From an uncultured Spirochaetota bacterium (GTDB lineage: Bacteria; Spirochaetota; Spirochaetia; JAFGXN01), in NCBI GenBank assembly GCA_944390005.1, contig CALXOJ010000001.1, positions 144,363-208,362 of the forward strand: a stretch of 64,000 bases of DNA, read 5' to 3'. The first letter of the stretch is position 1. Every line of letters starts with the position of its first letter. A model generated the notes under the pieces. The model was not told the origin of the DNA. It saw only the letters and a program-made list of their open reading frames with translations, and searched no databases. The position numbers and the translations under genes are program-made. Positions 508 through 20,845 of this stretch are shown in pieces.

Positions 508-1578
508 TTATTTTATCGTTTTTTCTTCGGTTTGTAAAGCCGATTTTTCTGTTCGGGAGCATCGGTCGCGCAAGGCGAAGTCAGCCAAAACAATTGCCGT
601 CATCGCTTCGATGACAGGAACGATACGCGGGCACAGGCACGGATCGTGGCGGCCGCGGAGGACGGCTTCGGTTTCCGTTCCGTCTTCGGTGCGGAAGAGC
701 TGCGGTTTGAAAATTGACGGAGTCGGTTTGACGGCAACGCGAAAAAAGAGCGGTTCGCTGTCGGAGATGCCGCCGAGTACGCCGCCGCTGTGTCCCGGAC
801 GGTTGTTTTCTGAACCGCAAAGAAGGGCTGCGCCGAATCCGCTGCCGAATTCGATTCCTTTGACGCTGCCTACGGAAAGAACGGCGTGCGCCAGTACCGC
901 ATCAAGCTTGTCAAAAACCGGTTCTCCCCATCCGACAGGAAGACCATCGGCTCGGCACGCAACAACGCCGCCGACGCTCTCTTTTTCGGCGGTTTTTGCT
1001 TTGATGTAGGCTTCCATTTCAGCTGCCGCTTCGGGGTCGCGGCAGCGCACCGCGTTGGATTCTGCGTTTTCGGGTGCGCCGTTTTTCGCTTCAATCGGAC
1101 CGATGCTTTCTGTCCATGCACAGATGCGGATTCCGTAAAGCCCGAGCAGTTTTTTCGCAACGGCGCCGGCCGCTACCCTCGCGGCGGTCTCTCTTCCGCT
1201 TGAACGGCCGCCTCCTCGGTAATCCCGCAGCCCGTATTTTTCAAACCAGCTTCGGTCGGCGTGCCCCGGACGGAAAAGGCGGGCAATGTCGCTGTAATCG
1301 GAAGAGCGCTGATTTTCATTGACAATGCGTATGGCAATCGGGGCTCCCGTTGTCACGCCTTCAAAGACTCCGGATTCGATAACGGCGGTGTCCGACTCTT
1401 TTCGCGGTGTGGTCACGGATGACTGACCCGGTCTGCGGCGGTTCAGCTCCTTCTGAATGTCGGCAGCCGATAACGGCAGTCCCGACGGACACCCGTCGAT
1501 GACAACGCCGAGCGCCGGACCGTGGGATTCTCCGTAAGTTGTTATTCTGAAAACGGTTCCGAATGTGTTTCCGCTCAT
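508..1578 (-). CDS. aroC: chorismate synthase
   Basis: 356 aa; MSGNTFGTVFRITTYGESHGPALGVVIDGCPSGL... is the canonical AroC N-terminus. Confidence 0.95.
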   Translation of the reverse strand: MSGNTFGTVFRITTYGESHGPALGVVIDGCPSGLPLSAADIQKELNRRRPGQSSVTTPRKESDTAVIESGVFEGVTTGAPIAIRIVNENQRSSDYSDIARLFRPGHADRSWFEKYGLRDYRGGGRSSGRETAARVAAGAVAKKLLGLYGIRICAWTESIGPIEAKNGAPENAESNAVRCRDPEAAAEMEAYIKAKTAEKESVGGVVACRADGLPVGWGEPVFDKLDAVLAHAVLSVGSVKGIEFGSGFGAALLCGSENNRPGHSGGVLGGISDSEPLFFRVAVKPTPSIFKPQLFRTEDGTETEAVLRGRHDPCLCPRIVPVIEAMTAIVLADFALRDRCSRTEKSALQTEEKTIK

Positions 1579-2162
1579 AAAGTTCCTCCGTTTTGGAATT
1601 CTTTCAGCAGAGCTGCCAACCGCTGCGTCCGTCGATCGACCGGTTCGTCGTTTTCCGCAGCCGTAAGTGTCGCGTCGGCTGTCTCTCGGTAAAGCTGCCG
1701 CCGTCTTTCATAGAGGCGGCTGAAAGCCGCTTTCGGGTCGTCGGATTCCAGAAACGGCGGTATTCCGCTTTTGACGATGCGTTCATACAGCCGCATTTGC
1801 GGCTCGTCGAGAAAGACGAAAAACGCGCCTGCCGCCTTGTAGATCGAAACGGCCGGCGGATTATCGCAGAGCCCTCCGCCGGCGGCTGCGATAATCGGTT
1901 TTTGTTCTGCGATGAGGGCCGCCGCGCGGCATTCGAGGTCTTTGAAAAAAGTTTCGCCTTTTTCCCGGAAAATTTCGCGGCAGCTTTTCTCCGCGTGATA
2001 TTCGCGGCGGTAAAGCGTTTCGATCACTTCATCCGAATCGGCAAAAGCGATACCGAGCTTTGCCGCCAACGCTTTTCCGCATAAACTCTTCCCCGAATGT
2101 TTGATTCCGCAGAGAAGGATGAGATTTGACGGCATCGAGAAGACCATATCGGTGCTTGTCAT
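1575..2162 (-). CDS. aroK: shikimate kinase
   Basis: P-loop LLCGIKHSGKS. The chosen ATG (MTSTDMVF...) is preceded by AAGGAAA at 7 nt. There is a 4-nt ATGA overlap with aroC. Confidence 0.85.
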   Translation of the reverse strand: MTSTDMVFSMPSNLILLCGIKHSGKSLCGKALAAKLGIAFADSDEVIETLYRREYHAEKSCREIFREKGETFFKDLECRAAALIAEQKPIIAAAGGGLCDNPPAVSIYKAAGAFFVFLDEPQMRLYERIVKSGIPPFLESDDPKAAFSRLYERRRQLYRETADATLTAAENDEPVDRRTQRLAALLKEFQNGGTL

Positions 2163-2314
2163 TCTATTTCCTTTTAACTTTAAGATAAAATCTATCAATC
2201 AATATTTTCTTATTATTTGATTTGTGCTATTCTGTATTCACCGTAGATTGTTTATTTACTATAATACAATACATCAAACAGAGTTTAAAAAGCAACCCCT
2301 TTCGGAGGTTTCGG

Positions 2315-3505
2315 GTGTTTGACAAACAAAAGCTGTTTAAAATTGGTGTTGTTTTCTTCGTTTTTATCGCCATTGCGGCAGTCCTGCTTCGGCTTCTGTT
2401 TTCGAAGACGACGCAGGCTCCCGAAACGACGATTCCTGTCGTTGTGACAAAGGGAATTCTCAGCGATTTACAGAAAGATTACAAAATTAACGCTTACATT
2501 GAGCCGAAAAACATGGTTCAGGTTCATTCGAAGGTCAGCGGCAATATCACCACATTCCGTGTTGACATCGGCGACAAAGTGAAGGCCGGCGACGAACTTC
2601 TCTTGATCAATGATGCTCCGTATCGTCTGCAGTTTGAGCAGGCATCGGCTGCCTACGACGGAATCGGCAAAATTTACGAACGGGTACGGCGGTCGTACAA
2701 TCAAGGCGTTGCGACTCAGCAAGAGTACGATGAAGCGCGGACCCGTTACGAAGCGACAAAGTCACAGTATGAACTGGCCAAGCTTCAGATGGATTATGCC
2801 CGCGTCGATTCGCCGATTGACGGAACCGTTTTACAGAAGTACGTCAGTACGGGACAGTTGGTTTCGCCCGACGTCGGTCTGCTTGTTGTCGCCGATTTGT
2901 CAGAGCTGGTTGTCCGCGCCAAGCTGCCGGAAGATAACTTTTTTCGATTCAATAAAGACCGGGATAAAATCACCGTTAAAATTAAACATCCTGCCGAAGA
3001 CACGCTGTATGCGGCTCATATCGAAAGAATCGGGGAGATGGTAGAGCCTCAGTCAAAGAATTTCGAGGTGGTCTGCAATCTGGATGAAGGCTACGATTTC
3101 CTTCGTCCCGGTATGTTTGTCAATGTCATTTTCATTCTTGAACGGAAAGAAGACGTTTACAGTCTGCCGATCCGGACTTTGGTTGGAGATGATGTGCTTT
3201 GGTACGTAAATCCTGATACAATGAGAGCCGAACGGATGATTTTTCAGCCGGTTTTTTCTGATGACGATTCGTTTGAAATTCCGAACGGATACAAAGATTA
3301 TTATTTCATTGTTGAAGGACAGAATTTTATTTACGACGGACAGCCGGTCTCTGTGAAAAATACTGACGATTATCCCGAACTCTCCGGAGAACAGCAGCCT
3401 GTTTCCGAATCGGAAAAAGAAGCTGCGGCTGTGCAAGAAACTTCCGGCGGTCAAGATGCCGAAACGGAAGCGGAAAGCGCCGTTGCGGAGGAATCGGCCG
3501 CATGA
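2315..3505 (+). CDS. RND efflux periplasmic adaptor (HlyD/membrane fusion protein)
   Basis: N-terminal TM segment, biotinyl/lipoyl-like hairpin (VSGNITTFRVDIGDKVKAGDELLLI), coiled coil and beta-barrel regions. The GTG start at about 2315 sits 6 nt after GGAGG. The C-terminus is acidic and low-complexity. Confidence 0.85.
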   Translation: MFDKQKLFKIGVVFFVFIAIAAVLLRLLFSKTTQAPETTIPVVVTKGILSDLQKDYKINAYIEPKNMVQVHSKVSGNITTFRVDIGDKVKAGDELLLINDAPYRLQFEQASAAYDGIGKIYERVRRSYNQGVATQQEYDEARTRYEATKSQYELAKLQMDYARVDSPIDGTVLQKYVSTGQLVSPDVGLLVVADLSELVVRAKLPEDNFFRFNKDRDKITVKIKHPAEDTLYAAHIERIGEMVEPQSKNFEVVCNLDEGYDFLRPGMFVNVIFILERKEDVYSLPIRTLVGDDVLWYVNPDTMRAERMIFQPVFSDDDSFEIPNGYKDYYFIVEGQNFIYDGQPVSVKNTDDYPELSGEQQPVSESEKEAAAVQETSGGQDAETEAESAVAEESAA

Positions 3506-6500
3506 AACCGTGGAATTTCGCCATTAAACATCCCGTCATTATCGGGATCATGTTGTTGACGATAGTGATGTTCGGCGGAATTTCTCTGACAACACTCAAG
3601 CAGGATTTGATTACCAATATATCGCTGCCGCAGATTGCCGTCTTTACGATTTATCCCGGCGCCGGACCGGAAGACGTCGAACAGGGCGTTACCGATATTC
3701 TTGAAGAGCGTTTCGCCGGTATTCAAGGCGTTGACAGCATTGAATCGTTTTCTCAAAATTCACTCTCGATGATTATTTTGATTTTCAATTCGGAAGCGGA
3801 CTTGGAACAAAAAATCAACGAGGTGCGGGCGGAAATCAACGCGTCAATGGTTTCGCTTCCTGATAACATCAGCGGAATGCCGATGGCGCTGGTTATGAGC
3901 TCCAACTTGTATCCGATCTTTTCTGCTCAGGTTGAGAGCACAATGAATCGGACTGTATTGACCGATTATATTCAGACAAAGGTTGTGCCGCTGCTCAGCC
4001 GTATCGAGGGTATTGCAACGGTCGATTTAGTCGGTTTGGCGGAACGGCAATTAGATATCGTTATTGATTTGGAAAAACTCGAATCGAGAAACATTTCCAT
4101 TCTCGATATTTATCAACTTTTGATGTACAATAATCTGACCTTTCCTGCGGGAAGCGTCAGTTACCGAGATAAGAAACTCAATGTCCGAACGGTCGGCAAC
4201 TTCAAAACCGTCAGCGACATCGGCGAAATGGTTGTCGGATACAAAGAGGATGAACGCAGTTTCGTTCTGTTGAAGGATATTGCTGTTATTAAAATTGTTG
4301 AAAAGAAACCGGATCACTACGCCGAATTCGGCGGGCAGTCGATTCTCGTTCTTGACATCCGAAAGAAATCCGACGGCGATTCGCTGGCGATTATCGATCA
4401 GGCGAAGGAGGTCTTCCGCCAGGTTTCACTGGATACCAACGGCGCTGTTGCGTTTACGCCGGTTATCGACAGTTCGTTTGATGTCAAGTTGGCGGTCAAT
4501 TCGGTGCGCGATTCGGCCGTACAAGGCGCCATTTTGGCGATTTTGGTTATTTTTCTTTTTCTCCACAATGTTCGGACGACTTTCATCATCGGATCGGCCA
4601 TTCCGCTCTCTGTTGTTATTTCTTTCATTTTTATGCGTTTCGGAAATCTCGACATCAACATCATTACGTTGGGCGGATTGACCGTCGCTATCGGTATGAT
4701 GGTCGACTCTGCCATCGTTATTTTGGAGAATACATACAACCACTTTGAGAAGACCGGCGACCGGAAAACCGCTTCTTCTGTCGGAGCGGGGGAGGTCGGC
4801 GGTGCTATTTTGGCTTCGACAACGACAACGCTGGCGGTTTTTGTTCCGATTCTCTTTTTGACCGGATTGGTTGGAGCCATTTTGAAAGACATCAGTCTGA
4901 CAATTTGTTTCGCAATTACCGCATCCGCCTTTGTTGCCGTCATTATTGTCCCATGGATGTGCTCACTGATGCTGAAACAGCCGCAGCCCGAAAAAGCGGG
5001 ACGAATCGGCCGTATTTATCAGATTGCGTCGAATAAAATCGATTTTGTCATTGATAAAGTCAGAGACGGTTACATTGCGGCGCTGCGGTGGGTGATCGGC
5101 AATAAAAAGTTTTTTGCGCTGCTGATGGTTCTGATTTTGATTCTCAGCGTGCTGCTCTTTTTGCTGCTCGGATTTACTTTCATTCCGTCGACCGATATGA
5201 ATGAATTCCAGATTGAAGTGACCGCGCCTTCCGGTTTTTCTCTGGAGCAGACGCGTGAAAAAATGAGAGAAATCGAAGCGATTGTCAACGAATTGGTTCC
5301 CGAGTTGGATTCGGGGTATTACTATACCGGTTTGTCGGGAGCGTACGACGTCGTTTACGTACCGAAGAAAGGCTTTGCTAAATTGCGTCTGATCCGCAAA
5401 TCGGAGCGTCCCGAAGTCGACGGGCGTGTGCGCAACGTTCAGGATGTCATTTTGCTGCTGCAGGAGGAAATTCCGGCGCGGGTGACCGACGTCAACGTTG
5501 TTGTTTCCAACGGCGGTATCGATAAAATGCTTTCGTATGCGACCGGCGGCGCCGGATTGGTGATCGAAGTTTTCGGCGAGGATTTCGACGACGTTTTACA
5601 GTCGGCGACCACCGTTTCCGAAATACTCAGCAAGGATCCCGGAATTTATAAAACCGGTATGAACGTTGTCACCACCGAGTATGAAGTCATCAACGAACTG
5701 ACGCTGCGGTATTTGAATTACCTCGGCATCACTCCGTTTGAAGCCGGCGTAACCTCTCGTATCATTTTCAACGGAATGGAAGTCGGACAGTTCAATGAGG
5801 ATGGCAAAAATTACACCATCAATTTGGTTTCCAATGTTGCCGGAGAGAGAATTACCGACGACATTCTCAACAAAATCCGCATCAAGAACCGACAGAACGA
5901 CTTTATCAGCTTTGAAAATATTTCGCAGATGCAAATCGAAAAGACAGTCGATCAAATTCCTCACATTGACCGAATGAAATCGATTGTGGTGACCGGTTAT
6001 CAGCGGGATCCCGACATCAAAGCCATCGGAGACCGGTTTACGGCGAAAATGAATGAAATTGTCTTACCGGGTGATGTACAGTGGAAAATCGGCGGTTCGT
6101 CTGAGTTGCTGACTTCATCCCTCGACAGTCTGGTGAAGGTGCTGCTGATTGCAATTTACCTCGTTTATGTTGTCATGGTGGTTCAGTTTGAGCGTTTCAT
6201 TCAGCCGTTCATCATTTTGGGCTCGATTCCGTTTGTCGTCATCGGTGTGGCGCTGACGCTGTTTTTGACGAATACACAAATTTCCCTCGTTTCGATGCTG
6301 GGAATCATTGCGTTGGCGGGAACGGTCGTCAATAACGCTATCGTTTTAGTCGATTTTACCAATTTATTGAGACGCGATTATAATATGGAATTGATGGACG
6401 CCGTCTACAAAGGCGCCGCGTCCCGTTTTAAGCCCATTATGATGACCACACTGACAACTATTTTGGGCGTTATTCCGATGGCGTTTGGAGGCGGCGAGGG

Positions 6501-6666
6501 CGCTGAAATTTACGCTCCGCTGGGTCTGACTATCGGCAGCGGTTTGATTACTTCTACTGCGGTTACCTTGTTTATCATTCCGATGCTTTATGCGACAGTC
6601 GAAAAGCGCATGGAAAATCGGAAACAAAAGAAAAAAATTGCAATTTCAGGGGAGGCTTCGAAATGA
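3502..6666 (+). CDS. RND family efflux transporter permease (AcrB/HAE1-like), 12 TM
   Basis: 1054 aa with characteristic length and TM/porter-domain layout. ATGA overlap with the upstream adaptor. Confidence 0.95.
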   Translation: MKPWNFAIKHPVIIGIMLLTIVMFGGISLTTLKQDLITNISLPQIAVFTIYPGAGPEDVEQGVTDILEERFAGIQGVDSIESFSQNSLSMIILIFNSEADLEQKINEVRAEINASMVSLPDNISGMPMALVMSSNLYPIFSAQVESTMNRTVLTDYIQTKVVPLLSRIEGIATVDLVGLAERQLDIVIDLEKLESRNISILDIYQLLMYNNLTFPAGSVSYRDKKLNVRTVGNFKTVSDIGEMVVGYKEDERSFVLLKDIAVIKIVEKKPDHYAEFGGQSILVLDIRKKSDGDSLAIIDQAKEVFRQVSLDTNGAVAFTPVIDSSFDVKLAVNSVRDSAVQGAILAILVIFLFLHNVRTTFIIGSAIPLSVVISFIFMRFGNLDINIITLGGLTVAIGMMVDSAIVILENTYNHFEKTGDRKTASSVGAGEVGGAILASTTTTLAVFVPILFLTGLVGAILKDISLTICFAITASAFVAVIIVPWMCSLMLKQPQPEKAGRIGRIYQIASNKIDFVIDKVRDGYIAALRWVIGNKKFFALLMVLILILSVLLFLLLGFTFIPSTDMNEFQIEVTAPSGFSLEQTREKMREIEAIVNELVPELDSGYYYTGLSGAYDVVYVPKKGFAKLRLIRKSERPEVDGRVRNVQDVILLLQEEIPARVTDVNVVVSNGGIDKMLSYATGGAGLVIEVFGEDFDDVLQSATTVSEILSKDPGIYKTGMNVVTTEYEVINELTLRYLNYLGITPFEAGVTSRIIFNGMEVGQFNEDGKNYTINLVSNVAGERITDDILNKIRIKNRQNDFISFENISQMQIEKTVDQIPHIDRMKSIVVTGYQRDPDIKAIGDRFTAKMNEIVLPGDVQWKIGGSSELLTSSLDSLVKVLLIAIYLVYVVMVVQFERFIQPFIILGSIPFVVIGVALTLFLTNTQISLVSMLGIIALAGTVVNNAIVLVDFTNLLRRDYNMELMDAVYKGAASRFKPIMMTTLTTILGVIPMAFGGGEGAEIYAPLGLTIGSGLITSTAVTLFIIPMLYATVEKRMENRKQKKKIAISGEASK

Positions 6667-8078
6667 AAAGATCGGTTTTATTGCTGTTGTTGGCGGTTTT
6701 TTTGCTGCCGATCGGCTGTGACGGAGTTTATGATACGTCCGTACAGGGCGTTGTAGTGGATTGGGATGATTACAACAGCGCTGCCGTGGAGGATCCCGGA
6801 ATTAACGACGTCGATGTTTATCTCTACCTTGATGAAACACTTTTGGATGAAGATTTGACGGCGTGGGGCAACGATGGAACACTTCCCGACAATCGTCTTA
6901 ATAAGAAAGGCGTCAAAGAGCAGGCCTATTATCAGAAAACCACGACGGCTTCTTCCGGCGGAGAAAACGGCGTGTTCAACTTCAACGGCTTAATGTGGCG
7001 AAATTTCTTCCCCGAATTCGGTAACGACGGAGACCGTGCAACGCTCTATTTTCTCTTCTATCATAAAGATTACGGCATGGTGAAAGCTGATAACCCCGTG
7101 ATTGCCACTTCAGGCGTCACCAACAAGTTGCCGCAGTTTCGAATCAAAAAAGCGCTGTGTGAAGTTATCCTCAGCGGTTATGTCGTCGATATGAATAAAA
7201 AGAAGGAAGGTTCCGGAAGCAAACTGCCGCTGCAGGGGGTGACTGTCGGTATTTATATGCCGATAGAATTCAACAGTTCGACGGGAGCTGCCGAAGCGTG
7301 GGAAACGGAGCCGAAGTACACGGTTCTGACCGATGCTGACGGTCGGTTTGAGCAGAAAATCAATTTTACAAAGCGAAATGAACCTGTCAACCAGAAGTGT
7401 ACGGTCAAACTCACTTTTGATCTGACCGATTATGTCGGTTATACTCTGACATCGGAAGCTGCCAACCAATACAGCGGTCTGAACGGAGATGCCGTCCCCG
7501 AAGTCGAACGTGATTCAGCCAACTGGGTTCTGCTCAACGGATCGGAAAGCGTTTCCCTGTCGTACAAAGGCTTTGACGGAACGGCTACGACAGTCTCGGA
7601 TATTTCCGAGAGCGTCGGCGGCGGAGCCGGTCCCGATTTTACGGAAAAATATGACATCGACAACGACGGTGAAGACGAAGTATGTTTGCCGGTGACGTTG
7701 ACCTGCAATACCGACAACCCCAACGGCAGCAGTTACCGGCTGGGCGAGAGCGTTTATCTGAAGCAGTACCGTTTTTCGACAACCGTTGCGGGAAGCATTT
7801 TGGACAGTACCGGAACAACGCTGAACGGAAGTGTCACACTCTCTTCCGCAGCCGATTATTCGAATTCAGAAACGACCAAGACTCAGTTAATCAGTTCAGG
7901 AGATACGCCTGTCTACGGATATTCAATGAGCTATTCGTGGACGGTTTACAATTACAGTACCGAGTATGCGTATCAGTTGGTTTACATGAAAGCGTCTGCC
8001 GGTTCTTCAAATATTGATAAAGGGGCGACGCTGATTTCCGGCCGTTCGGAAAATGCAGTGGACTTTATAAAACCATAA
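6663..8078 (+). CDS. lipoprotein of unknown function embedded in the RND operon (beta-sandwich CarboxypepD_reg/transthyretin-like repeats suspected)
   Basis: Signal peptide plus lipobox (LLPIGC). Motifs such as GYVVD...LQGVTVGIY...TDADGRF resemble carboxypeptidase-regulatory-like domains. ATGA overlap with the RND pump and 10 nt to the TolC-like gene. GGGGAGG ribosome-binding site. Confidence 0.6.
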   Translation: MKRSVLLLLLAVFLLPIGCDGVYDTSVQGVVVDWDDYNSAAVEDPGINDVDVYLYLDETLLDEDLTAWGNDGTLPDNRLNKKGVKEQAYYQKTTTASSGGENGVFNFNGLMWRNFFPEFGNDGDRATLYFLFYHKDYGMVKADNPVIATSGVTNKLPQFRIKKALCEVILSGYVVDMNKKKEGSGSKLPLQGVTVGIYMPIEFNSSTGAAEAWETEPKYTVLTDADGRFEQKINFTKRNEPVNQKCTVKLTFDLTDYVGYTLTSEAANQYSGLNGDAVPEVERDSANWVLLNGSESVSLSYKGFDGTATTVSDISESVGGGAGPDFTEKYDIDNDGEDEVCLPVTLTCNTDNPNGSSYRLGESVYLKQYRFSTTVAGSILDSTGTTLNGSVTLSSAADYSNSETTKTQLISSGDTPVYGYSMSYSWTVYNYSTEYAYQLVYMKASAGSSNIDKGATLISGRSENAVDFIKP

Positions 8079-8088
8079 GGAGTCGGAC

Positions 8089-9774
8089 GTGGAAATAAAA
8101 ATGAAAGGGAGAACGCTGCCTTTCGCCGTTTTTTTCCTGTTTCTCTCCCTCTTTGCTTTCGGTGAAAAGAAAAGCTACACCGAGGTGATAACCACCGATC
8201 CCCTTGTCGAGAAAGGGCTTTCGGTCTCTGCTGGAAAGAAAATCGGCATTTGGCGTCCTCCGACAGAAAAAAAAGAGCTCCCGACTGACCGAAAAATTAC
8301 ATTGGAAGATTTGATTGAGCATGCGCTGACAAACAATGCTGAATTGGGGCAGATGCGCTCGGAGGTTAATCAGGCTAAAATCGGCGTTATGGGGGCGAAG
8401 GCCAACTATTTCCCCAAAGTCGATTTTCAGGCGTCGATGACATGGTTTTTGAATCCGCTGAAAGAGATCGGTTTGAAACAGGGTGAATTGGGGATCGTCG
8501 AAATTCCCAACGTCGGTTCTGTAATGCTTCCGATGGAGGATTACAGCCTCTATGATGCCCGCGACAATTCGTTTTATCGGTTTGTCTTTACATTGGAGCA
8601 ACCGATCTTCACATGGGGAAAAATTCCTGCCGCCGTCAAACTCTATCGGGAAGCCGCTCGGGCTGCTGAGCTGAAGTGCGCCCGCAAAGAGAGAGAATTG
8701 GAAGCATCCGTCAACGGCTATTACTTTTCGATTTATTATTTGAATCAAATTTCAGCCGCATTGGGCGAACAGATGCAGTATTCGGATCGGCTGCTGCTTT
8801 TAACCCGCTCCAGTTACGAAAACGGATTCATCACCTTGACCGACTTTCAGGACGTTCAAACGAAGGTCAAAGACGTTCAGATTGCCGATTCGCGCGTTAA
8901 AGACAGCTTTAACATGATCCGATACAAATTGATCGCGGCTCTCGGCGGAACGAATATCGATTTGGAAAATATCGATTTTACCGGAGCGGAAGAGCGGCTG
9001 GCGGAGTTTGAAACCGCCGACTGGATGAAAACTCTCGACGAATACGTTTCCCAGGCGAAGGCGGCGAGCGTTGAAATGGATTTATTGCGCGCTCAGGTTG
9101 AAGTTTATGAACAAAAGTATGATATCGCCAAGGCGGACAGCTACTTGAAACCGGCGGTCGGAATGCAGGTTCAGGCAGGATTTTCGGGAACGGCATTTCC
9201 GTTTTTGGAACGCGGCTGGTATACAAGCGGTTCGCCGATTTTAAGCGCTTCGATCGGAATTCAGTCGCGTATTTTGGACGGCGGAGACCGTCTTTCGACG
9301 ATTATGCTCGGCGAACAGGAGCTGCAAAACGCGAAGTATCAGCTTCAGTCCGGGGAATTTACCATCGAATCGACAGTTTCGACTTTGTACTCGAATATCG
9401 AATACAATTACACCAACATTGCGTATTTGAAAGATCAAGAGGCCAATTATCAGCGTTTGGCCGATCGGCAACGGATTCGCTATAACGCCGGGCAACTGCG
9501 GGAAATCGATTATTTGCGCAGTCTGATTGAGTATCAGACCAGTCTGATTTCGACGGCGAACGAACGAATCACATTGGTCGGAAATTATTTTCAGCTGATG
9601 TACTTAATCGATAATGTCGACGGAAAAGACGAGCCGGTTGTAACGGAAGAGGTGATAGCCGATTCGCCGGAGGCAGAGCCCGGAAACGGGACTGCTGCCG
9701 AAAACGCGGGCGAAGCGGCATCTGAAACCGCGCAGACCGCCGCAACCGAAACACCGGCCGCTCAGGCGGAGTAA
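8089..9774 (+). CDS. TolC-family outer membrane efflux channel
   Basis: Signal peptide, two outer-membrane-efflux-protein repeats with coiled-coil heptads, last gene of the operon. C-terminal acidic Ala/Glu/Thr tail. Confidence 0.85.
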   Translation: MEIKMKGRTLPFAVFFLFLSLFAFGEKKSYTEVITTDPLVEKGLSVSAGKKIGIWRPPTEKKELPTDRKITLEDLIEHALTNNAELGQMRSEVNQAKIGVMGAKANYFPKVDFQASMTWFLNPLKEIGLKQGELGIVEIPNVGSVMLPMEDYSLYDARDNSFYRFVFTLEQPIFTWGKIPAAVKLYREAARAAELKCARKERELEASVNGYYFSIYYLNQISAALGEQMQYSDRLLLLTRSSYENGFITLTDFQDVQTKVKDVQIADSRVKDSFNMIRYKLIAALGGTNIDLENIDFTGAEERLAEFETADWMKTLDEYVSQAKAASVEMDLLRAQVEVYEQKYDIAKADSYLKPAVGMQVQAGFSGTAFPFLERGWYTSGSPILSASIGIQSRILDGGDRLSTIMLGEQELQNAKYQLQSGEFTIESTVSTLYSNIEYNYTNIAYLKDQEANYQRLADRQRIRYNAGQLREIDYLRSLIEYQTSLISTANERITLVGNYFQLMYLIDNVDGKDEPVVTEEVIADSPEAEPGNGTAAENAGEAASETAQTAATETPAAQAE

Positions 9775-9783
9775 CGCTTTTTC

Positions 9784-9815
9784 AAACGGCTGTCTCCTGA
9801 CAGCCGTTTTTTTTC
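9784..9815 (+). terminator. rho-independent terminator between convergent genes
   Basis: AAACGGCTGTC-tcct-GACAGCCGTTT (11-bp stem) followed by T8, immediately after the TolC-like stop. Could also serve the convergent minus-strand gene (weaker U-tract). Confidence 0.8.
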
Positions 9816-9817
9816 TT

Positions 9818-12709
9818 TTACAGCCGGACGGCGCGCAGCGGCTTCCGGATTGCTTCGTTCCGCAGCAGAGACAGCGCCGAAGCGATGTCAAGCGAAAAGT
9901 ACGGTTTGAGATCTTCCCGAATATCGAAAACGACACCGGCTGAGGTCGGAATTCGGCAGGAAACGCCGACGGTCAACGGAAAAACTGCCTGAGCAAACCC
10001 GATTTGAATGTTTAATTCTCCGCCAAGATAGACGTAATTACCGAACGCCGCCGTTTGTTCGATCGTATTAAAATTCGCATAAATTTGCGTAAACAAAGCG
10101 CCCGAAAACGAGTGAAGGGCCAATGTTGCGAACAGCGGCGCGTCAACGATCGCAATCGGAAACTGGTACCCGAACGATGCGCTTAAAGCGGCGGTTGTGT
10201 TTCGATCTTCGTATTCAAAGCCTCGCAGCAGCAATTGATGAGTCTGATTGACTTCCGTTGATGCGGAAAAGCAGATCTCTGAAAAAAACGAGTGCGCGCC
10301 GACAATGGGAATCGTTCCCATTACAGCAAAGACGCCCAGAAAAACCGGCTCTTCGATTTCTCCGATCGGCAACAAAACCGAGGAGTTGAACCCCGCGTAG
10401 ACGTACTGCGCCAGCGACGGATAACCGCGGAATCCGCTGTGCCATGAATATTGAAAATCGATATTTTGATTGGAGTAGAGAAAGTGCTCCGATTCAATGC
10501 CTCCGGCAGCGGCATTTGCCATTCCGAATGCGTGAAACGGTTCAGCCGCCGTCATTGTCCAATAGTGAGTCAATCCGCCGCCGATCTCTGCATGCCACTG
10601 ACGGTTGGCGAGGGATCGGGTAAAAAGCGGAACCGAGACCGACAGCGTTTGTGAGAATTCCTGACGGTATTCGGATCCTGTTTCATCCTCGAACAAATTG
10701 CCGCCGTTGAGCAGCGAATAAGAAAATTTCAGTATCGAAGCCTCAAACGCGGCGTCAAGAAAAACAGAGGGCTGAAAAACCGAATTCCCTTCAGCCTCAA
10801 ACGGAAACGACGTCATAAAAAAAACGGAATCGTTTTTGACAACCGATTGGGCGTACATCAGAAATCCGAAACCGAGCGGATTGGCAAAGCCTCCGACCGG
10901 AGAATAATTGATCGGAAACGGTGTCCATCCGACAAATTGAGCCGAGTCGATGTATCTTTTGACAGTCAACGATACGCCTGGAAGGGAGGCCGGATCGGGA
11001 ACCGTCGGCTCAACCGCTGTCGGTTGGACGGTTACAGTGAGCGCCAGCGTTTCGGGCGCAGCGGCGGTCTCCTCGGCAATTTTTATGACATAGCCGTCAG
11101 ACGCGTAAGACTGGTAGTAAAATCGGCCGCCGTATCGGATACCTGCCAAAACACCGATGCGATCGGAGAGCCGTTTGACGGCTTCACCTCCGTTTTTGGG
11201 ATTCCGTTCGAACAGTTCGAGCGATCCGCTGCCGTCTCCGATAAAAAACAGCGACCCGTTTTGATCAAACTCCGGGTAATAAAGCATTCCGCCGTTTTCC
11301 GCCGTCAAGAATTCGACAGTTTGTGACTCCCGATCGAGCACGGCAACGGATTGGACTCCCGCACGGTTGTACGCAAACGCAATCAGGCGGCTGTCCGGCG
11401 AAACGGTCGGATGAAAGACGTTGACTTCACCGCCGTCGAAGAGCGTTTGAACGGCTCCCGTTTTGAGATCAACCGACACAAGACGCGAATACGGTCCGTC
11501 CGTTTGAACGGCGGCAGCTGTGTTTTCGTCGATGTACGCCGGTTGGAAAAGCCGAGCGTTTTTTGTAATCCGCCGCGTTTTTCCGCTTTCGGCACACCAT
11601 TCAAACAAGTCGGCGACCGAATGAGGATGACCTTCGACGGCGTAGTCAATTTCATAGCCCGAATAAAGAATACGGCTGCCGTCAAAAAGAGCGTCGTAAT
11701 CGTTTGCGTTGGTCAGGGAGGCAAACGCAATCGGCTGTTCGGCTCCCGTATCGGGATCCAAAAAAACGAAGCGGGACGGATTTTCGTTCGAAGCGTTCTG
11801 ATAGGAGAGAATGCCTTGGATAGTCGCTACGGGGCGGCCGTAATCGATGCGGACGCCTTTTGAGAACCGTTCGCCGAGAGGCAGATCATAGAGCGGTTCA
11901 AATCGCTCCGAGTAAAACCGAATCATGTCGCGGTAAAGCGTTTCTGTCGGTTTTCCCGTAACAATTTCAAAAGCCCGATACGGTGCCAGCGGATTCTTTT
12001 CCATTTGCCGGTAGAATCGCGCCATGACATCGTCGCCGTAAGTTTCAAAGAGATAATTGATCATCATATAACCGACGACGTAAATTCTTCCGTAAGGCTG
12101 AATGTACGGATTGTAAGCTGCCTGCTTGAGCGACGGCATGGCGTTTTCCGTTATTTGAGCGCGATAAATCATTTCAAAATAAGGATTTCGCCCCCTTCCG
12201 CCTTTTGAAAAACGGGTTTCGGTGTACGTTGTGATTCCTTCGATGACCCAACCGGGTTGAAAGACGGACGGAGCCGGACGCAAAATCGGACCGAAAAATT
12301 TTGACAGTTCATAAAGCCATCCGCTTTCCGGTGACATAGAGATATAGTGCGTCAGTTCATGGGTAAAAAGCGATCGCAGCCAATTTTCGGTCCGTGCGCC
12401 GAGAAAAAAATCCCGCGGCGATGTGACGTAGAGATTCAGATATTCGGGAACGGGGTAGTAGCTTCCGTTGGCTTGATTGACGTCGCTGTGGATAACGACT
12501 TTGATTTGCCGCGGTCGATTTTCCAGCAATCCGGCCAAATTTTCGTAAACCTCTTCAGAAAACGATGCAATTTCCCGCGCCCACCGTTCGTTGTCTTTCT
12601 CGAAAATAAAAACGAAGTGTTCCGTTTCAATTTGATAACGGGAAACGGACCATGCGGAAAGAGCGGAAGTCAGAAAAATTGCGATTAAAAAGAGACGGAA
12701 GAGCTTCAT
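9818..12709 (-). CDS. large exported protein: N-terminal HExxH (gluzincin-like) domain + TolB-like beta-propeller + C-terminal beta-rich (barrel-like) region
   Basis: 963 aa with a signal peptide. FTHELTHYIS...WVIEGITTY gives HExxH plus a downstream Glu. PDSRLIAFAYNRAGVQSVAVLD-type propeller blades follow. The Gly/aromatic-rich C-terminal 400 aa ends in an aromatic residue. Confidence 0.6.
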   Translation of the reverse strand: MKLFRLFLIAIFLTSALSAWSVSRYQIETEHFVFIFEKDNERWAREIASFSEEVYENLAGLLENRPRQIKVVIHSDVNQANGSYYPVPEYLNLYVTSPRDFFLGARTENWLRSLFTHELTHYISMSPESGWLYELSKFFGPILRPAPSVFQPGWVIEGITTYTETRFSKGGRGRNPYFEMIYRAQITENAMPSLKQAAYNPYIQPYGRIYVVGYMMINYLFETYGDDVMARFYRQMEKNPLAPYRAFEIVTGKPTETLYRDMIRFYSERFEPLYDLPLGERFSKGVRIDYGRPVATIQGILSYQNASNENPSRFVFLDPDTGAEQPIAFASLTNANDYDALFDGSRILYSGYEIDYAVEGHPHSVADLFEWCAESGKTRRITKNARLFQPAYIDENTAAAVQTDGPYSRLVSVDLKTGAVQTLFDGGEVNVFHPTVSPDSRLIAFAYNRAGVQSVAVLDRESQTVEFLTAENGGMLYYPEFDQNGSLFFIGDGSGSLELFERNPKNGGEAVKRLSDRIGVLAGIRYGGRFYYQSYASDGYVIKIAEETAAAPETLALTVTVQPTAVEPTVPDPASLPGVSLTVKRYIDSAQFVGWTPFPINYSPVGGFANPLGFGFLMYAQSVVKNDSVFFMTSFPFEAEGNSVFQPSVFLDAAFEASILKFSYSLLNGGNLFEDETGSEYRQEFSQTLSVSVPLFTRSLANRQWHAEIGGGLTHYWTMTAAEPFHAFGMANAAAGGIESEHFLYSNQNIDFQYSWHSGFRGYPSLAQYVYAGFNSSVLLPIGEIEEPVFLGVFAVMGTIPIVGAHSFFSEICFSASTEVNQTHQLLLRGFEYEDRNTTAALSASFGYQFPIAIVDAPLFATLALHSFSGALFTQIYANFNTIEQTAAFGNYVYLGGELNIQIGFAQAVFPLTVGVSCRIPTSAGVVFDIREDLKPYFSLDIASALSLLRNEAIRKPLRAVRL

Positions 12710-12859: not shown

Positions 12860-13177
12860 ATGACAAGTTATTCAGAAAAAGGAAAAGAAGTTTTAAATAG
12901 ATCGGGATTGTTTCCCGATTATGATGCGGCTTTTTGGTATTTTCTGAAAGGCGCGCAATCCGGTGAAAAAGACGCATTTTTCATGTTGGCTGAATGTTAT
13001 TTTCACGGTCTGGGAACGGATAAGGACTTGGACAAAGCGGATGTCTTCTATCACCTTGCAGAAAAGGCAGGCTGTAAAGTCGATCACATTATTTATGAAA
13101 AGATCGAAAACGGCGGCCGCAATTTGACGCAGGAAGAAATCGATAAAATTGTTGCTGAATTTTATTGCGCCGGGTGA
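12860..13177 (+). CDS. Sel1-like (TPR-family) repeat protein, small
   Basis: AECYFHGLGTDKDLDKA and LKGAQSGEKDAFFMLA match the Sel1 repeat consensus. Own AT-rich promoter region with an extended -10 (tgaTAGAAT). Confidence 0.6.
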   Translation: MTSYSEKGKEVLNRSGLFPDYDAAFWYFLKGAQSGEKDAFFMLAECYFHGLGTDKDLDKADVFYHLAEKAGCKVDHIIYEKIENGGRNLTQEEIDKIVAEFYCAG

Positions 13178-18968: not shown

Positions 18969-19077
18969 TGACTCACCTCGAATCCCATTGTATTGAAAGC
19001 CGGAAAAATTTCAATCGCCCGACGAATGCAAAAAGTTTTCATTGCGGTTTTTTGGATTTTATAGTATACTAAATCGT

Positions 19078-19905
19078 ATGAATTTATATGAAAACCTGCG
19101 GATCGGATTGACGTGGGTGCGGCCGGCTTTGGATATTCTGCTGCTGGCGTTTATCGTCTACTCCGTTTTGCACATTCTCCGAAAAGTTCCCGGCATTCGG
19201 CGGCTGGTAACGGTGGTCGCTGTTTTTTTTGCGTTTTATGTCGTTGCGTACATTTTGGATTTGCGGACCAACTTGTGGGTTTTTAATAAATTGATGGTTC
19301 TGGCCGGAATTGCAGTTATCGTTGCTTATCAATCGGAATTTAAGCAAATTTTTACACGGTTGGGCAGCGGCGGATTTTTCGGAGAGCCTTCCTCGTTGGC
19401 GCAAGAGGATCAAATCAAGAAAATCATTGATGCGCTTTATTATCTCTCTTCTGTCGGGAGAGGCGCTTTGATTGTCTTAGAGCGCCGCATCCGTCTCGAT
19501 ACGGTTGTTTCCAGCGGAACGAGAATTGACGCTGAGATCTCCTTTAATCTCCTCTGTTCGATTTTTGAAAAAGATACCCATCTTCACGACGGAGCTGTTT
19601 TGATTCGACAGGGGCGGCTTGAGGCGGCCGGATGCTTTTTACCGATGTCCGAACAGCGGGATTTGCGTTCGAGTTTCGGGACCCGTCACCGTTCCGCATT
19701 GGGAATGGCGGAAAACAGCGATGCGGTTGTTTTGATTGTGTCGGAAGAGACGCAGGCCGTTTCACTGGCGTTTGAATCGGAGTTTTTTTACGATTTAAAA
19801 CGAGACGAGTTGAGCTCTTATCTGAGCGGAATTTTTGAATTTGAAAGCGCGATTCGAGAACTTCCCGAATCTGCGGAACCGTCCGGGGGTTCCGATGAAA
19901 AATAA
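19078..19905 (+). CDS. cdaA: diadenylate cyclase (c-di-AMP synthase, DAC domain, 3 TM)
   Basis: DGA and RHR motifs (HLHDGAVLI...GTRHRSALG) with an N-terminal TM triplet. Confidence 0.9.
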   Translation: MNLYENLRIGLTWVRPALDILLLAFIVYSVLHILRKVPGIRRLVTVVAVFFAFYVVAYILDLRTNLWVFNKLMVLAGIAVIVAYQSEFKQIFTRLGSGGFFGEPSSLAQEDQIKKIIDALYYLSSVGRGALIVLERRIRLDTVVSSGTRIDAEISFNLLCSIFEKDTHLHDGAVLIRQGRLEAAGCFLPMSEQRDLRSSFGTRHRSALGMAENSDAVVLIVSEETQAVSLAFESEFFYDLKRDELSSYLSGIFEFESAIRELPESAEPSGGSDEK

Positions 19906-20845
19906 GAACCGCTTTTTATCGCTTTTCACCGACGAGTGGCAGCTGAAAATTGCGGCGTTGGTCGGAGCGGTATTTACTTGGTTTTTTTATGATATGATTT
20001 CTCTTGAAGAGAGGTATTTAACGGTTCCGTTGGAAGTGTCGATAAACGAAACGGTGGCGCCGCTGCGTTCCTATCCGGAAGCTGTCAAGTTAACCGTCCG
20101 CGGAAGAGCGGAGGATATTTACCTTTTTTCCGATGAGGATTTTCGCGCTTTTGCCGATTTTTCCGCACATGACGTTCCCGGACGTTATGCTGTTCCCATT
20201 TCCGTCCAATCGCTTCGTTCAGCCGAACTTTTAAACGATATTCAAATTGATACTGATCCGAAGTTTCTCGATTTGGCTTTCGATTGGAAGGTTACGAAAC
20301 AGGTTGAAGTGACGGCTGATTTAAAAGGATTTCCTGCTTCCGGTTTTGAAGTGGCGGAGGTCAGAGTCGAGCCGGCGTTTGTGGAAATTTCGGCTCCCGA
20401 ATCCGTTGCTGCTCCCATTGAAACGGTTTCCACCATTCCCATTCCGATTGACGGCAGTCGGAATTCGTTTTCGGTTTTGGCGGAGGTTGCGATTGATGAT
20501 AAAACGGTGAGTTTCACCGGTGATCCGATCGTCCGTTTGTATGTAACCGTTTCGGAAGTTTATGTCGAAAAAAACTTTGAGCCGCTTCCGATTGAGCTGA
20601 ACCATTCGCTTTCCGGAGGGACATTGAGCATTACGCCGCAGACGGGGAGTCTCAGTCTCTCCGGCCGGCAGCTTTTAATGGACGGTTTGAACGCTGCGGA
20701 TGTGTCGCTGAAAGTCGATTTGCCGGAGTTGGTTCCGGGGGAATCTGTTGAATTGCCGGTTGTTCCGTCTGTGCCGGAAGGAACAACCGTTTTGAAGCAA
20801 ACGCCGCAAACGGTGACTGTTACATACAACGGAGAAGAAAATTAA
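19895..20845 (+). CDS. cdaR: CdaR/YbbR-like domain protein (c-di-AMP cyclase regulator)
   Basis: Overlaps the cdaA 3' end. Single N-terminal TM segment plus repeated YbbR-like beta domains. Confidence 0.75.
   Translation: MKNKNRFLSLFTDEWQLKIAALVGAVFTWFFYDMISLEERYLTVPLEVSINETVAPLRSYPEAVKLTVRGRAEDIYLFSDEDFRAFADFSAHDVPGRYAVPISVQSLRSAELLNDIQIDTDPKFLDLAFDWKVTKQVEVTADLKGFPASGFEVAEVRVEPAFVEISAPESVAAPIETVSTIPIPIDGSRNSFSVLAEVAIDDKTVSFTGDPIVRLYVTVSEVYVEKNFEPLPIELNHSLSGGTLSITPQTGSLSLSGRQLLMDGLNAADVSLKVDLPELVPGESVELPVVPSVPEGTTVLKQTPQTVTVTYNGEEN

Follow-up and report, generated by a model that had tools for sequence, protein, structure and literature searches.

We analysed a stretch of 64,000 nucleotides from an uncultured Spirochaetota bacterium (contig CALXOJ010000001.1, positions 144,363 to 208,362 of the forward strand), to which we refer as the window. 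On its minus strand lies a gene for a predicted exported protein of 963 amino acids, and this gene and its product are the subject of the present analysis. The original prediction for the locus pictured a surface-anchored protease of no described family, in which an HExxH zinc-peptidase motif, a TolB-like beta-propeller and a C-terminal barrel-like domain are joined in a single chain. We find that the three domains are there, that the barrel is predicted to be of the Omp85/BamA type, and that the peptidase probably faces the periplasm rather than the cell exterior. The gene is complete according to the listing of open reading frames (ORFs) and its translation, and its parts are as follows, with coordinates in the window:

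9818..12709, minus strand: complete coding sequence, 963 amino acids plus stop codon (ATG start; stop at 9818-9820)
12653..12709, minus strand: predicted signal peptide, residues 1-19, MKLFRLFLIAIFLTSALSA, a hydrophobic N-terminal segment
11840..12643, minus strand: gluzincin (clan MA(E)) metallopeptidase domain, residues 23-290
12347..12361, minus strand: HELTH zinc-binding and catalytic motif, residues 117-121, inside helix 110-125
12239..12241, minus strand: E157 in WVIEG, on helix 153-166; presumed third zinc ligand, a role taken from gluzincin architecture
12182..12202, minus strand: GGRGRNP motif, residues 170-176, family-specific and invariant
11021..11839, minus strand: six-bladed TolB/PD40-type beta-propeller, residues 291-563
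10940..11020, minus strand: Pro/Thr/Val/Ala-rich linker between propeller and barrel, residues 564-590
9890..10939, minus strand: predicted 16-stranded Omp85-type outer-membrane beta-barrel, residues 591-940 (DSSP strands in the structure model)
10193..10258, minus strand: loop L6, residues 818-839, between strands 11 and 12, with LRGF at 828-831 (RGF at 10217-10225)
9821..9889, minus strand: C-terminal tail, residues 941-963, of which 943-963 are predicted to be disordered (model confidence, pLDDT, below 50)

Zinc peptidase and propeller domains

Read by eye, the N-terminus (MKLFRLFLIAIFLTSALSA followed by W) resembles a signal peptide of type I, without a lipobox cysteine; the cleavage site was also placed by eye, without a predictor. 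Homolog alignments begin at query residues 1-5. Protein P0001 is 99% identical to the 963-residue protein, and the same gene is found on contig CALXKN010000003.1 of the uncultured Spirochaetes metagenome-assembled genome (MAG) BRZ_BB__bin28.

To describe the domains we rely on a full-length AlphaFold2 (AF2) model built with A1, an alignment of 61 full-length homologs. The model has a predicted local distance difference test score (pLDDT) of 88 and a predicted template modelling score (pTM) of 0.88. It consists of an alpha/beta domain (23-290), 24 beta-strands (291-563), a linker, a further 16 strands (591-940) and the disordered tail (943-963). Sequence searches of the query against Pfam, NCBIfam and PDB returned sub-threshold matches only, and these are consistent, with Peptidase_MA_2 and Peptidase_M9 at about residues 148-237 and PD40/TolB at about 379-515. 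The model and the fold matches together support the parse of the original prediction into a gluzincin, a TolB-like propeller and a C-terminal barrel. The ORF also contains each of the peptides that were quoted for it: FTHELTHYIS at residue 115, WVIEGITTY at 154, PDSRLIAFAYNRAGVQSVAVLD at 438 and GSLFFIGDGSGSLELFERNP at 485.

The N-terminal domain adopts a gluzincin (zincin) fold, with the HExxH on one helix and the glutamate on a later one, so the earlier reading of a gluzincin-like HExxH plus Glu holds at the level of fold as well as motif. H117, E118, H121 and E157 are invariant in 61 of 61 aligned homologs, and the HExxH is retained by all 319 full-length homologs drawn from four clades (79/79, 116/116, 98/98 and 26/26). 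Because the four catalytic or ligand residues are invariant and the HExxH is universal in the sampled homologs, the zincin is likely to be an active enzyme, as judged from sequence conservation. A second signature, GGRGRNP, is placed 13 residues past E157. Its residues G170, G171, R172, G173 and R174 are invariant across A1, and GGRGR is also present in most members of other clades and in P0333, a distant homolog that matches the Omp85 barrel family PF01103. To our knowledge, GGRGRNP has no counterpart in M1, M9 or M30 peptidases.

The same catalytic fold is shared by the gluzincins of families M30 (lugdulysin/hyicolysin), M1 (ERAP1, APN and the tricorn factor F3) and M9 (collagenases) and by Peptidase_MA_2. 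The likeness to M30, M1 and M9 extends to an HExxH with a downstream Glu in an "xEG" context. The zincin here differs in being minimal, at about 270 amino acids, in lacking the N- and C-terminal domains of M1 enzymes, and in having its own invariant GGRGRNP. From HExxH to Glu there are 18 residues in M1 enzymes and about 28 in those of M9, whereas E157 lies 35 residues after H121. We rejected an M1 aminopeptidase because the exopeptidase motif GxMEN is absent from the sequence as read and the spacing of 35 does not fit the M1 definition. The query does not reach the gathering score of any curated peptidase family; its Peptidase_M9 (PF01752) score of 14.2 bits stays under the cut-off of 26. However, family member P0069 passes that cut-off at 32.1 bits, and the relationship to M9 is therefore real but distant.

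For the propeller, TolB proteins are the nearest relatives in both sequence and fold, and tricorn and S9 peptidases are also among its profile and Foldseek matches. What residues 291-563 share with TolB is the six-bladed PD40 propeller, for which TolB is the best sequence and structure match. The differences are that the N-terminal alpha/beta domain of TolB is missing here, and that the protein has a barrel of its own for an anchor whereas TolB is soluble. TolB proper was rejected, since the query fails the cut-off of the TolB equivalog model NCBIfam TIGR02800 (25.7 bits against 343.15) and matches it only over profile positions 184-319 of 418, that is, the propeller. Most PD40 repeats in the Spirochaetia clade of the family score under the gathering threshold. 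The linker that follows has the lowest pLDDT of the model, below 50 at residues 569-575. No POTRA domain is matched by Pfam, and the spacing between propeller and barrel is just 27 residues.

The C-terminal barrel and its link to Omp85 proteins

The alternating hydrophobicity that had been noted for the C-terminal region is borne out, and a barrel is predicted. Over the 16 strands, the mean hydrophobic moment at a two-residue period is 1.20, compared with 0.59 +/- 0.11 for shuffled sequences (z 5.5; the observed value was reached by 0 of 2000 shuffles), and the same signal is absent from the propeller strands. The connections between barrel strands total 33 residues on the N-terminal side and 88 on the far side, L6 included. 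Short turns on the N-terminal side and long loops on the far side agree with the usual pattern of outer-membrane proteins and fit a periplasmic N-terminus.

The end of the protein does not look as the original prediction had it. Instead of an aromatic C-terminal residue, the chain finishes ...RAVRL in the disordered tail, and the last strand, LKPYFSL (934-940), which is aromatic and conserved, precedes the end by about 23 residues. The family consensus for this strand is D-x-x-P-Y-x-F-x-G-x-D-S-F. Most outer-membrane proteins end with a beta-signal (cf. PMC11116518), and a tail appended after the last barrel strand is unusual. Across the family the tail varies from 0 to 45 amino acids and also in sequence; a few members terminate at the ...DSF or ...SIY strand itself.

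The most informative feature is the Omp85 identity of the barrel, which the original prediction did not recognise. Foldseek searches with the full model match BamA structures (9a2o, 6v05_A, 9hg7_A and 8qp5_A) and a Sam50 complex (7vku_A) at E values of about 1e-6 and a probability of 1.0, ranked under the matches to TolB and other propellers. The likeness to BamA, TamA and Sam50 consists in a 16-strand barrel and an L6 motif of the form (V/I)RG(F/Y) between strands 11 and 12. In our protein, LRGF stands in a 22-residue loop that runs from strand 11 (807-817) to strand 12 (840-858), with conservation of 90% or more at R829 and G830; the reference motifs are VRGF at 660-663 of E. coli BamA and IRGY at 476-479 of TamA. 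Strand 12 has a conserved D856-x-P motif. The 963-residue protein differs from BamA, TamA and Sam50 in having no POTRA domain, and sequence similarity to them is detectable only through intermediates. A classical autotransporter was rejected as a description of the protein: the barrel has 16 strands, not 12, the passenger logic is N-terminal, not C-terminal, and there is no beta-helix.

As neither the query nor any tested member of its clade matches PF01103, the Omp85 assignment rests on the fold, the motif and transitive profile links. For the latter we used profile-profile tests via PF01103-positive homologs, because single-sequence templates were too weak. The top 150 matches of an exhaustive profile search, the source of the ten divergent clade members discussed below, all apparently belong to one clade; reaching PF01103 therefore required homolog P0080 and another homolog search. 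P0080 matches the query at E 2.6e-51, and its own PF01103 match, in the L6 region, stays below threshold (19.7 against 24 bits). The relatives of P0080 have the same layout of about 950 amino acids and are Latescibacterota or Desulfobacterota where labelled. Four further homologs of the same length, P0333, P0335, P0336 and P0338, carry PD40 repeats together with PF01103 at 26.1, 24.9, 31.2 and 37.1 bits, respectively (gathering score 24).

The A1 profile aligns with P0333 at a probability of 100% (E 4.1e-52) over 689 colinear columns that span the signal peptide, the zincin (HEYTH and GGRGR), the propeller, the linker and the first seven barrel strands. When barrels alone were compared with hhalign, those of the query clade matched the Latescibacterota-type barrels at 97.1% (E 7e-11, 291 columns) and the PF01103-positive barrels at 94.5% (E 7.9e-8, 311 columns); the Latescibacterota-type and PF01103-positive barrels matched each other at 99.7% (E 5e-27, 369 columns), and the PF01103-positive barrels matched E. 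coli TamA at 85.6% (E 5.6e-6, 134 columns). Around L6, LRGF...YQFPIAIVD of the query aligns onto RGY...EYRFPL of the PF01103-positive group. From these profile and model comparisons we predict that the barrel is of the Omp85/BamA type.

Family and gene neighbourhood

A homolog search returned 93 proteins. Those with a named source are all from Spirochaetota, and their labels read "hypothetical", "TolB family" or "collagenase". The wider family, as defined by the exhaustive profile search, comprises 3359 cluster representatives at E<=1e-30, and the phyla found here include Spirochaetota, Latescibacterota and Desulfobacterota; a published survey adds more phyla for the subfamily discussed next (PMC4104836). 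One homolog belongs to Desulfatiferula olefinivorans, which can be cultivated. Four Spirochaetota MAGs have two paralogs each on different contigs (L015/L025, L046/L047, L029/L032 and L009/L045), which suggests functional diversification inside a genome. Precomputed annotations place PF26549 and PF26550 on most homologs (P0003-P0092 and P0229-P0343). Local Pfam did not report either one on the carriers that were scanned, including P0003, P0010, P0054, P0069 and P0086, and a literature search for PF26549 gave no result.

The original prediction held that this combination of domains is not a described family; that turns out to be wrong. Heinz & Lithgow (2014, Front Microbiol 5:370; PMC4104836) surveyed the Omp85/TpsB superfamily and recognised ten subfamilies in it. 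An N-terminal TolB-like propeller is present in one of them, the "WD40-like" subfamily. According to their Table S2, WD40-like proteins carry PF01103 with one to five copies of PF07676 and sometimes PF10647 or PF00930, and Table S3 lists about 95 proteins with a BamA/TamA barrel, TolB, and an M1- or M9-type "best aminopeptidase hit"; two of the accessions in it, H2CJ45 and I4B1S0, are probably spirochaetal. POTRA is missing from the WD40-like, Metallo and noNterm subfamilies (PMC4104836). The description recurs in a paper from 2024, where "divergent WD40 and peptidase domains" are ascribed to these Omp85 proteins (PMC11358297).

The WD40-like subfamily has the same three-part layout as our protein, likewise without POTRA, and its function is experimentally untested. 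Alignments of the query family with P0333, P0335, P0336 and P0338, which have the Pfam profile of that subfamily, extend over the whole length. The barrel of the Spirochaetia clade falls below PF01103, and membership of the clade in the subfamily is judged from the domain profile. Since the domain profile matches and homology to proteins with PF01103 and PF07676 is full-length, the 963-residue protein is, on sequence grounds, a divergent Spirochaetia member of the WD40-like/peptidase Omp85 subfamily. With its barrel under PF01103 detection, the clade would have escaped the search of Heinz & Lithgow with barrel hidden Markov models and would be missed by current domain-based censuses. A literature search found no experimental work on the peptidase-propeller-Omp85 architecture, which was catalogued computationally in 2014 and is experimentally uncharacterised.

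On one flank, the gene converges with a resistance-nodulation-division (RND) efflux operon on the plus strand (2222-9774), which encodes an HlyD-type adaptor, AcrB, an unassigned 471-aa ORF and a TolC-like outer membrane efflux protein (OEP). The gap between the stop of the TolC-like gene at 9774 and the stop of the 963-aa gene at 9818 is 43 nucleotides and contains one further feature:

9784..9809, no strand assigned: GC-rich hairpin of 11 pairs in the convergent gap (scan for terminator-like structures)

On the plus strand the letters next to the hairpin are TTTTTTCTTTT; on the minus strand it gives way to GAAAAAG, which is poor in T. The convergent arrangement was predicted correctly. The terminator, however, which the two transcription units were said to share, is shared structurally at best, because the T-run of the hairpin serves the plus strand.

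The 471-aa ORF (6663-8078, plus strand), flanked by AcrB and the TolC-like gene, overlaps the stop of AcrB with its start. Pfam, NCBIfam and PDB gave no match for it. It is conserved in the loci L002 and L003 at 54-63% identity, and it may be an unrecognised component of the efflux system. The other flank begins with a divergent Sel1-repeat ORF of 105 amino acids (12860-13177, plus strand; 150 bp upstream; conserved in the two closest relatives at about 70% identity) and continues with NFACT, an aminotransferase, a Mur ligase and hisD.

Across the neighbourhoods of 80 loci of the family we did not find a functional partner gene. Genes that recur in them are aroK, aroC, hisG and those for GGDEF/EAL proteins and histidine kinases, and no tol or pal genes are near the 963-aa gene. 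In 16-18 of these 80 loci, all from related Spirochaetota (L004, L007 and others), the genes for shikimate kinase and chorismate synthase directly follow the homolog on the same strand. In the window and in L002 and L003, which share synteny because they are closely related, aroK (1575-2198, minus strand) and aroC (508-1578, minus strand) are about 7.6 kb from the peptidase gene, with the four-gene efflux operon, oppositely oriented, in between. An ancestral order of homolog, aroK and aroC seems to have been interrupted by insertion of the operon. The other window ORFs that were sampled are ordinary (cdaA-ybbR at 19042-20845, DUF2225, priA and DUF2130), and the 64-kb window has no tRNA genes and no Rfam families at gathering score.

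Location and candidate functions

Based on these data, we propose that the protein is an outer-membrane-anchored zinc peptidase that faces the periplasm, a reading to which we assign a probability of about 0.6. A periplasmic peptidase is favoured because the N-terminal domains of Omp85 proteins are periplasmic (PMC11358297), because of the precedent of PlpD, and because of the asymmetry of loops and turns in the barrel. PlpD and FplA, formerly assigned to "type Vd secretion", resemble the 963-residue protein in having a hydrolytic enzyme N-terminal to a 16-strand Omp85 barrel. PlpD is the one fusion of an enzyme with an Omp85 barrel for which detailed tests of location exist: its lipase domain was earlier thought to be secreted and has been shown experimentally to be periplasmic (Hanson et al. 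2024, PMC11116518); the same authors regard passage through an Omp85 barrel after folding as energetically and sterically unfavourable (PMC11116518). PlpD differs in that it is a patatin lipase with one POTRA domain that forms homodimers, whereas here a zinc peptidase and a propeller are found without POTRA. PlpD is the best functional precedent for a periplasmic enzyme anchored in the outer membrane.

We infer the following course of events. The protein would be exported by Sec and its barrel inserted into the outer membrane by BAM, the beta-barrel assembly machinery. With strand 1 starting at the periplasmic face, the peptidase-propeller module would hang in the periplasm under the membrane. 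There the zinc peptidase would be active, and the adjoining propeller may admit only unfolded chains or peptides to the active site. Its likeliest job would be envelope proteostasis, in which polypeptides of the periplasm or associated with the outer membrane would be trimmed or degraded at the inner face of the membrane. In tricorn and in the S9 peptidases prolyl oligopeptidase and DPP-IV, PD40-type propellers stand beside the active site; by functional analogy with these enzymes, the propeller here may gate the zincin.

Other explanations deserve to be weighed against the periplasmic peptidase. An alternative that we consider unlikely is a machine for handling outer-membrane proteins (OMPs), whose barrel would bind the beta-signals of nascent or stalled OMPs as BamA does, whose propeller would be a BamB-like scaffold, and whose zincin would degrade clients that do not fold; a BamA/BamB/BepA-type unit for quality control would thus be formed by a single chain. 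Heinz & Lithgow found the subfamily reminiscent of a BamA-BamB fusion (PMC4104836), and both the RGF of loop L6 and D856-x-P on strand 12 are conserved. BepA (family M48) provides a functional analogy only: it is a periplasmic zinc peptidase at an Omp85 machine and is described as acting on stalled LptD at BAM (PMC8423444). The family is also widespread, with its 3359 representatives and with two paralogs in some genomes, which fits a housekeeping role in the envelope. However, the protein has no POTRA domain to receive substrates, its propeller is of the six-bladed TolB type while that of BamB is eight-bladed (PMC11358297), and its barrel is divergent enough to escape PF01103. Quite unlikely in our estimate is a self-contained machine for OMP quality control, in which the seam at strand 1 would capture the beta-signal of a stalled or misfolded OMP and the chain would be threaded past the propeller into the zincin. 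If this is true, a single polypeptide would combine recognition of the BamA kind with degradation of the BepA kind, and the WD40/peptidase subfamily would gain its first function.

A protease displayed at the surface, as the original prediction had it, or secreted, as in a type-V-like model, is also distinctly improbable. On this reading the barrel would move a zincin-propeller passenger outside, where it would break down external proteins to feed the cell or to interact with a host. Heinz & Lithgow did raise translocation for fusions of enzymes with Omp85 barrels, by way of the original model for PlpD (PMC4104836). A flexible Pro/Thr-rich linker precedes the barrel here, and the nearest folds, M9-like and M30-like zincins, are typically extracellular enzymes. 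Yet the analogy with PlpD has since been overturned by the periplasmic position of its enzyme domain (PMC11116518), and our protein comes without a POTRA domain, a beta-helical passenger or a partner gene. The passenger would be about 540 residues long and include a six-bladed propeller, whereas the passengers known to take this route are beta-helical or coiled-coil, are exported unfolded and acquire their fold outside the cell (PMC11116518; we extend this point to the present protein). The lengths of loops and turns fit a periplasmic N-terminus.

A role in tethering or remodelling the envelope would have the propeller bind a Pal-like lipoprotein or a ligand associated with peptidoglycan while the zincin cuts peptide stems or lipoprotein tethers. 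The proteins closest to the propeller are bona fide TolB proteins, and the predicted position of the module is on the inner side of the outer membrane, which would be the site of Pal and peptidoglycan tethers. Against this stand the missing TolB N-terminal domain, the equivalog score of 25.7 bits against 343 for the propeller part only, and the absence of tol and pal genes nearby. The zincin is nearest to hydrolases of proteins and peptides (M30, M1 and M9), and its fold is not closest to the known peptidoglycan metallopeptidase families. We therefore regard this role as highly improbable. We give almost no credence to a catalytically dead scaffold, in which the zincin would be a ligand-binding pseudo-enzyme: four residues invariant in 61 homologs and an HExxH kept in 319 of 319 are the signature of selection on catalysis.

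Several points weigh against the proposal of a periplasmic, barrel-anchored peptidase. PF01103 is not found in the query even at E<=1, in any of the 93 first-round homologs, or in any of the ten divergent clade members. The barrel profile does not match single E. coli sequences significantly (E 0.068 for BamA and 0.56 for TamA), and the Foldseek TM-scores are modest. The conserved neighbours (aroK, aroC and signalling genes) give no pointer to a substrate. Gating by the propeller is an analogy, not an observation, and the localisation, zinc binding and activity of the protein are all predicted.

For genome annotation, a suitable description of the protein would be an outer-membrane protein of the Omp85 family whose periplasmic domains are a gluzincin and a TolB-like propeller. 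The addition made by this locus is modest: a Spirochaetia clade whose barrel has drifted beneath Pfam detection. With PlpD as proof that an Omp85 barrel can serve as the anchor of a periplasmic enzyme, the subfamily to which the protein belongs is a natural next test of whether envelope maintenance is a second use, besides protein insertion, to which the Omp85 scaffold has been put.

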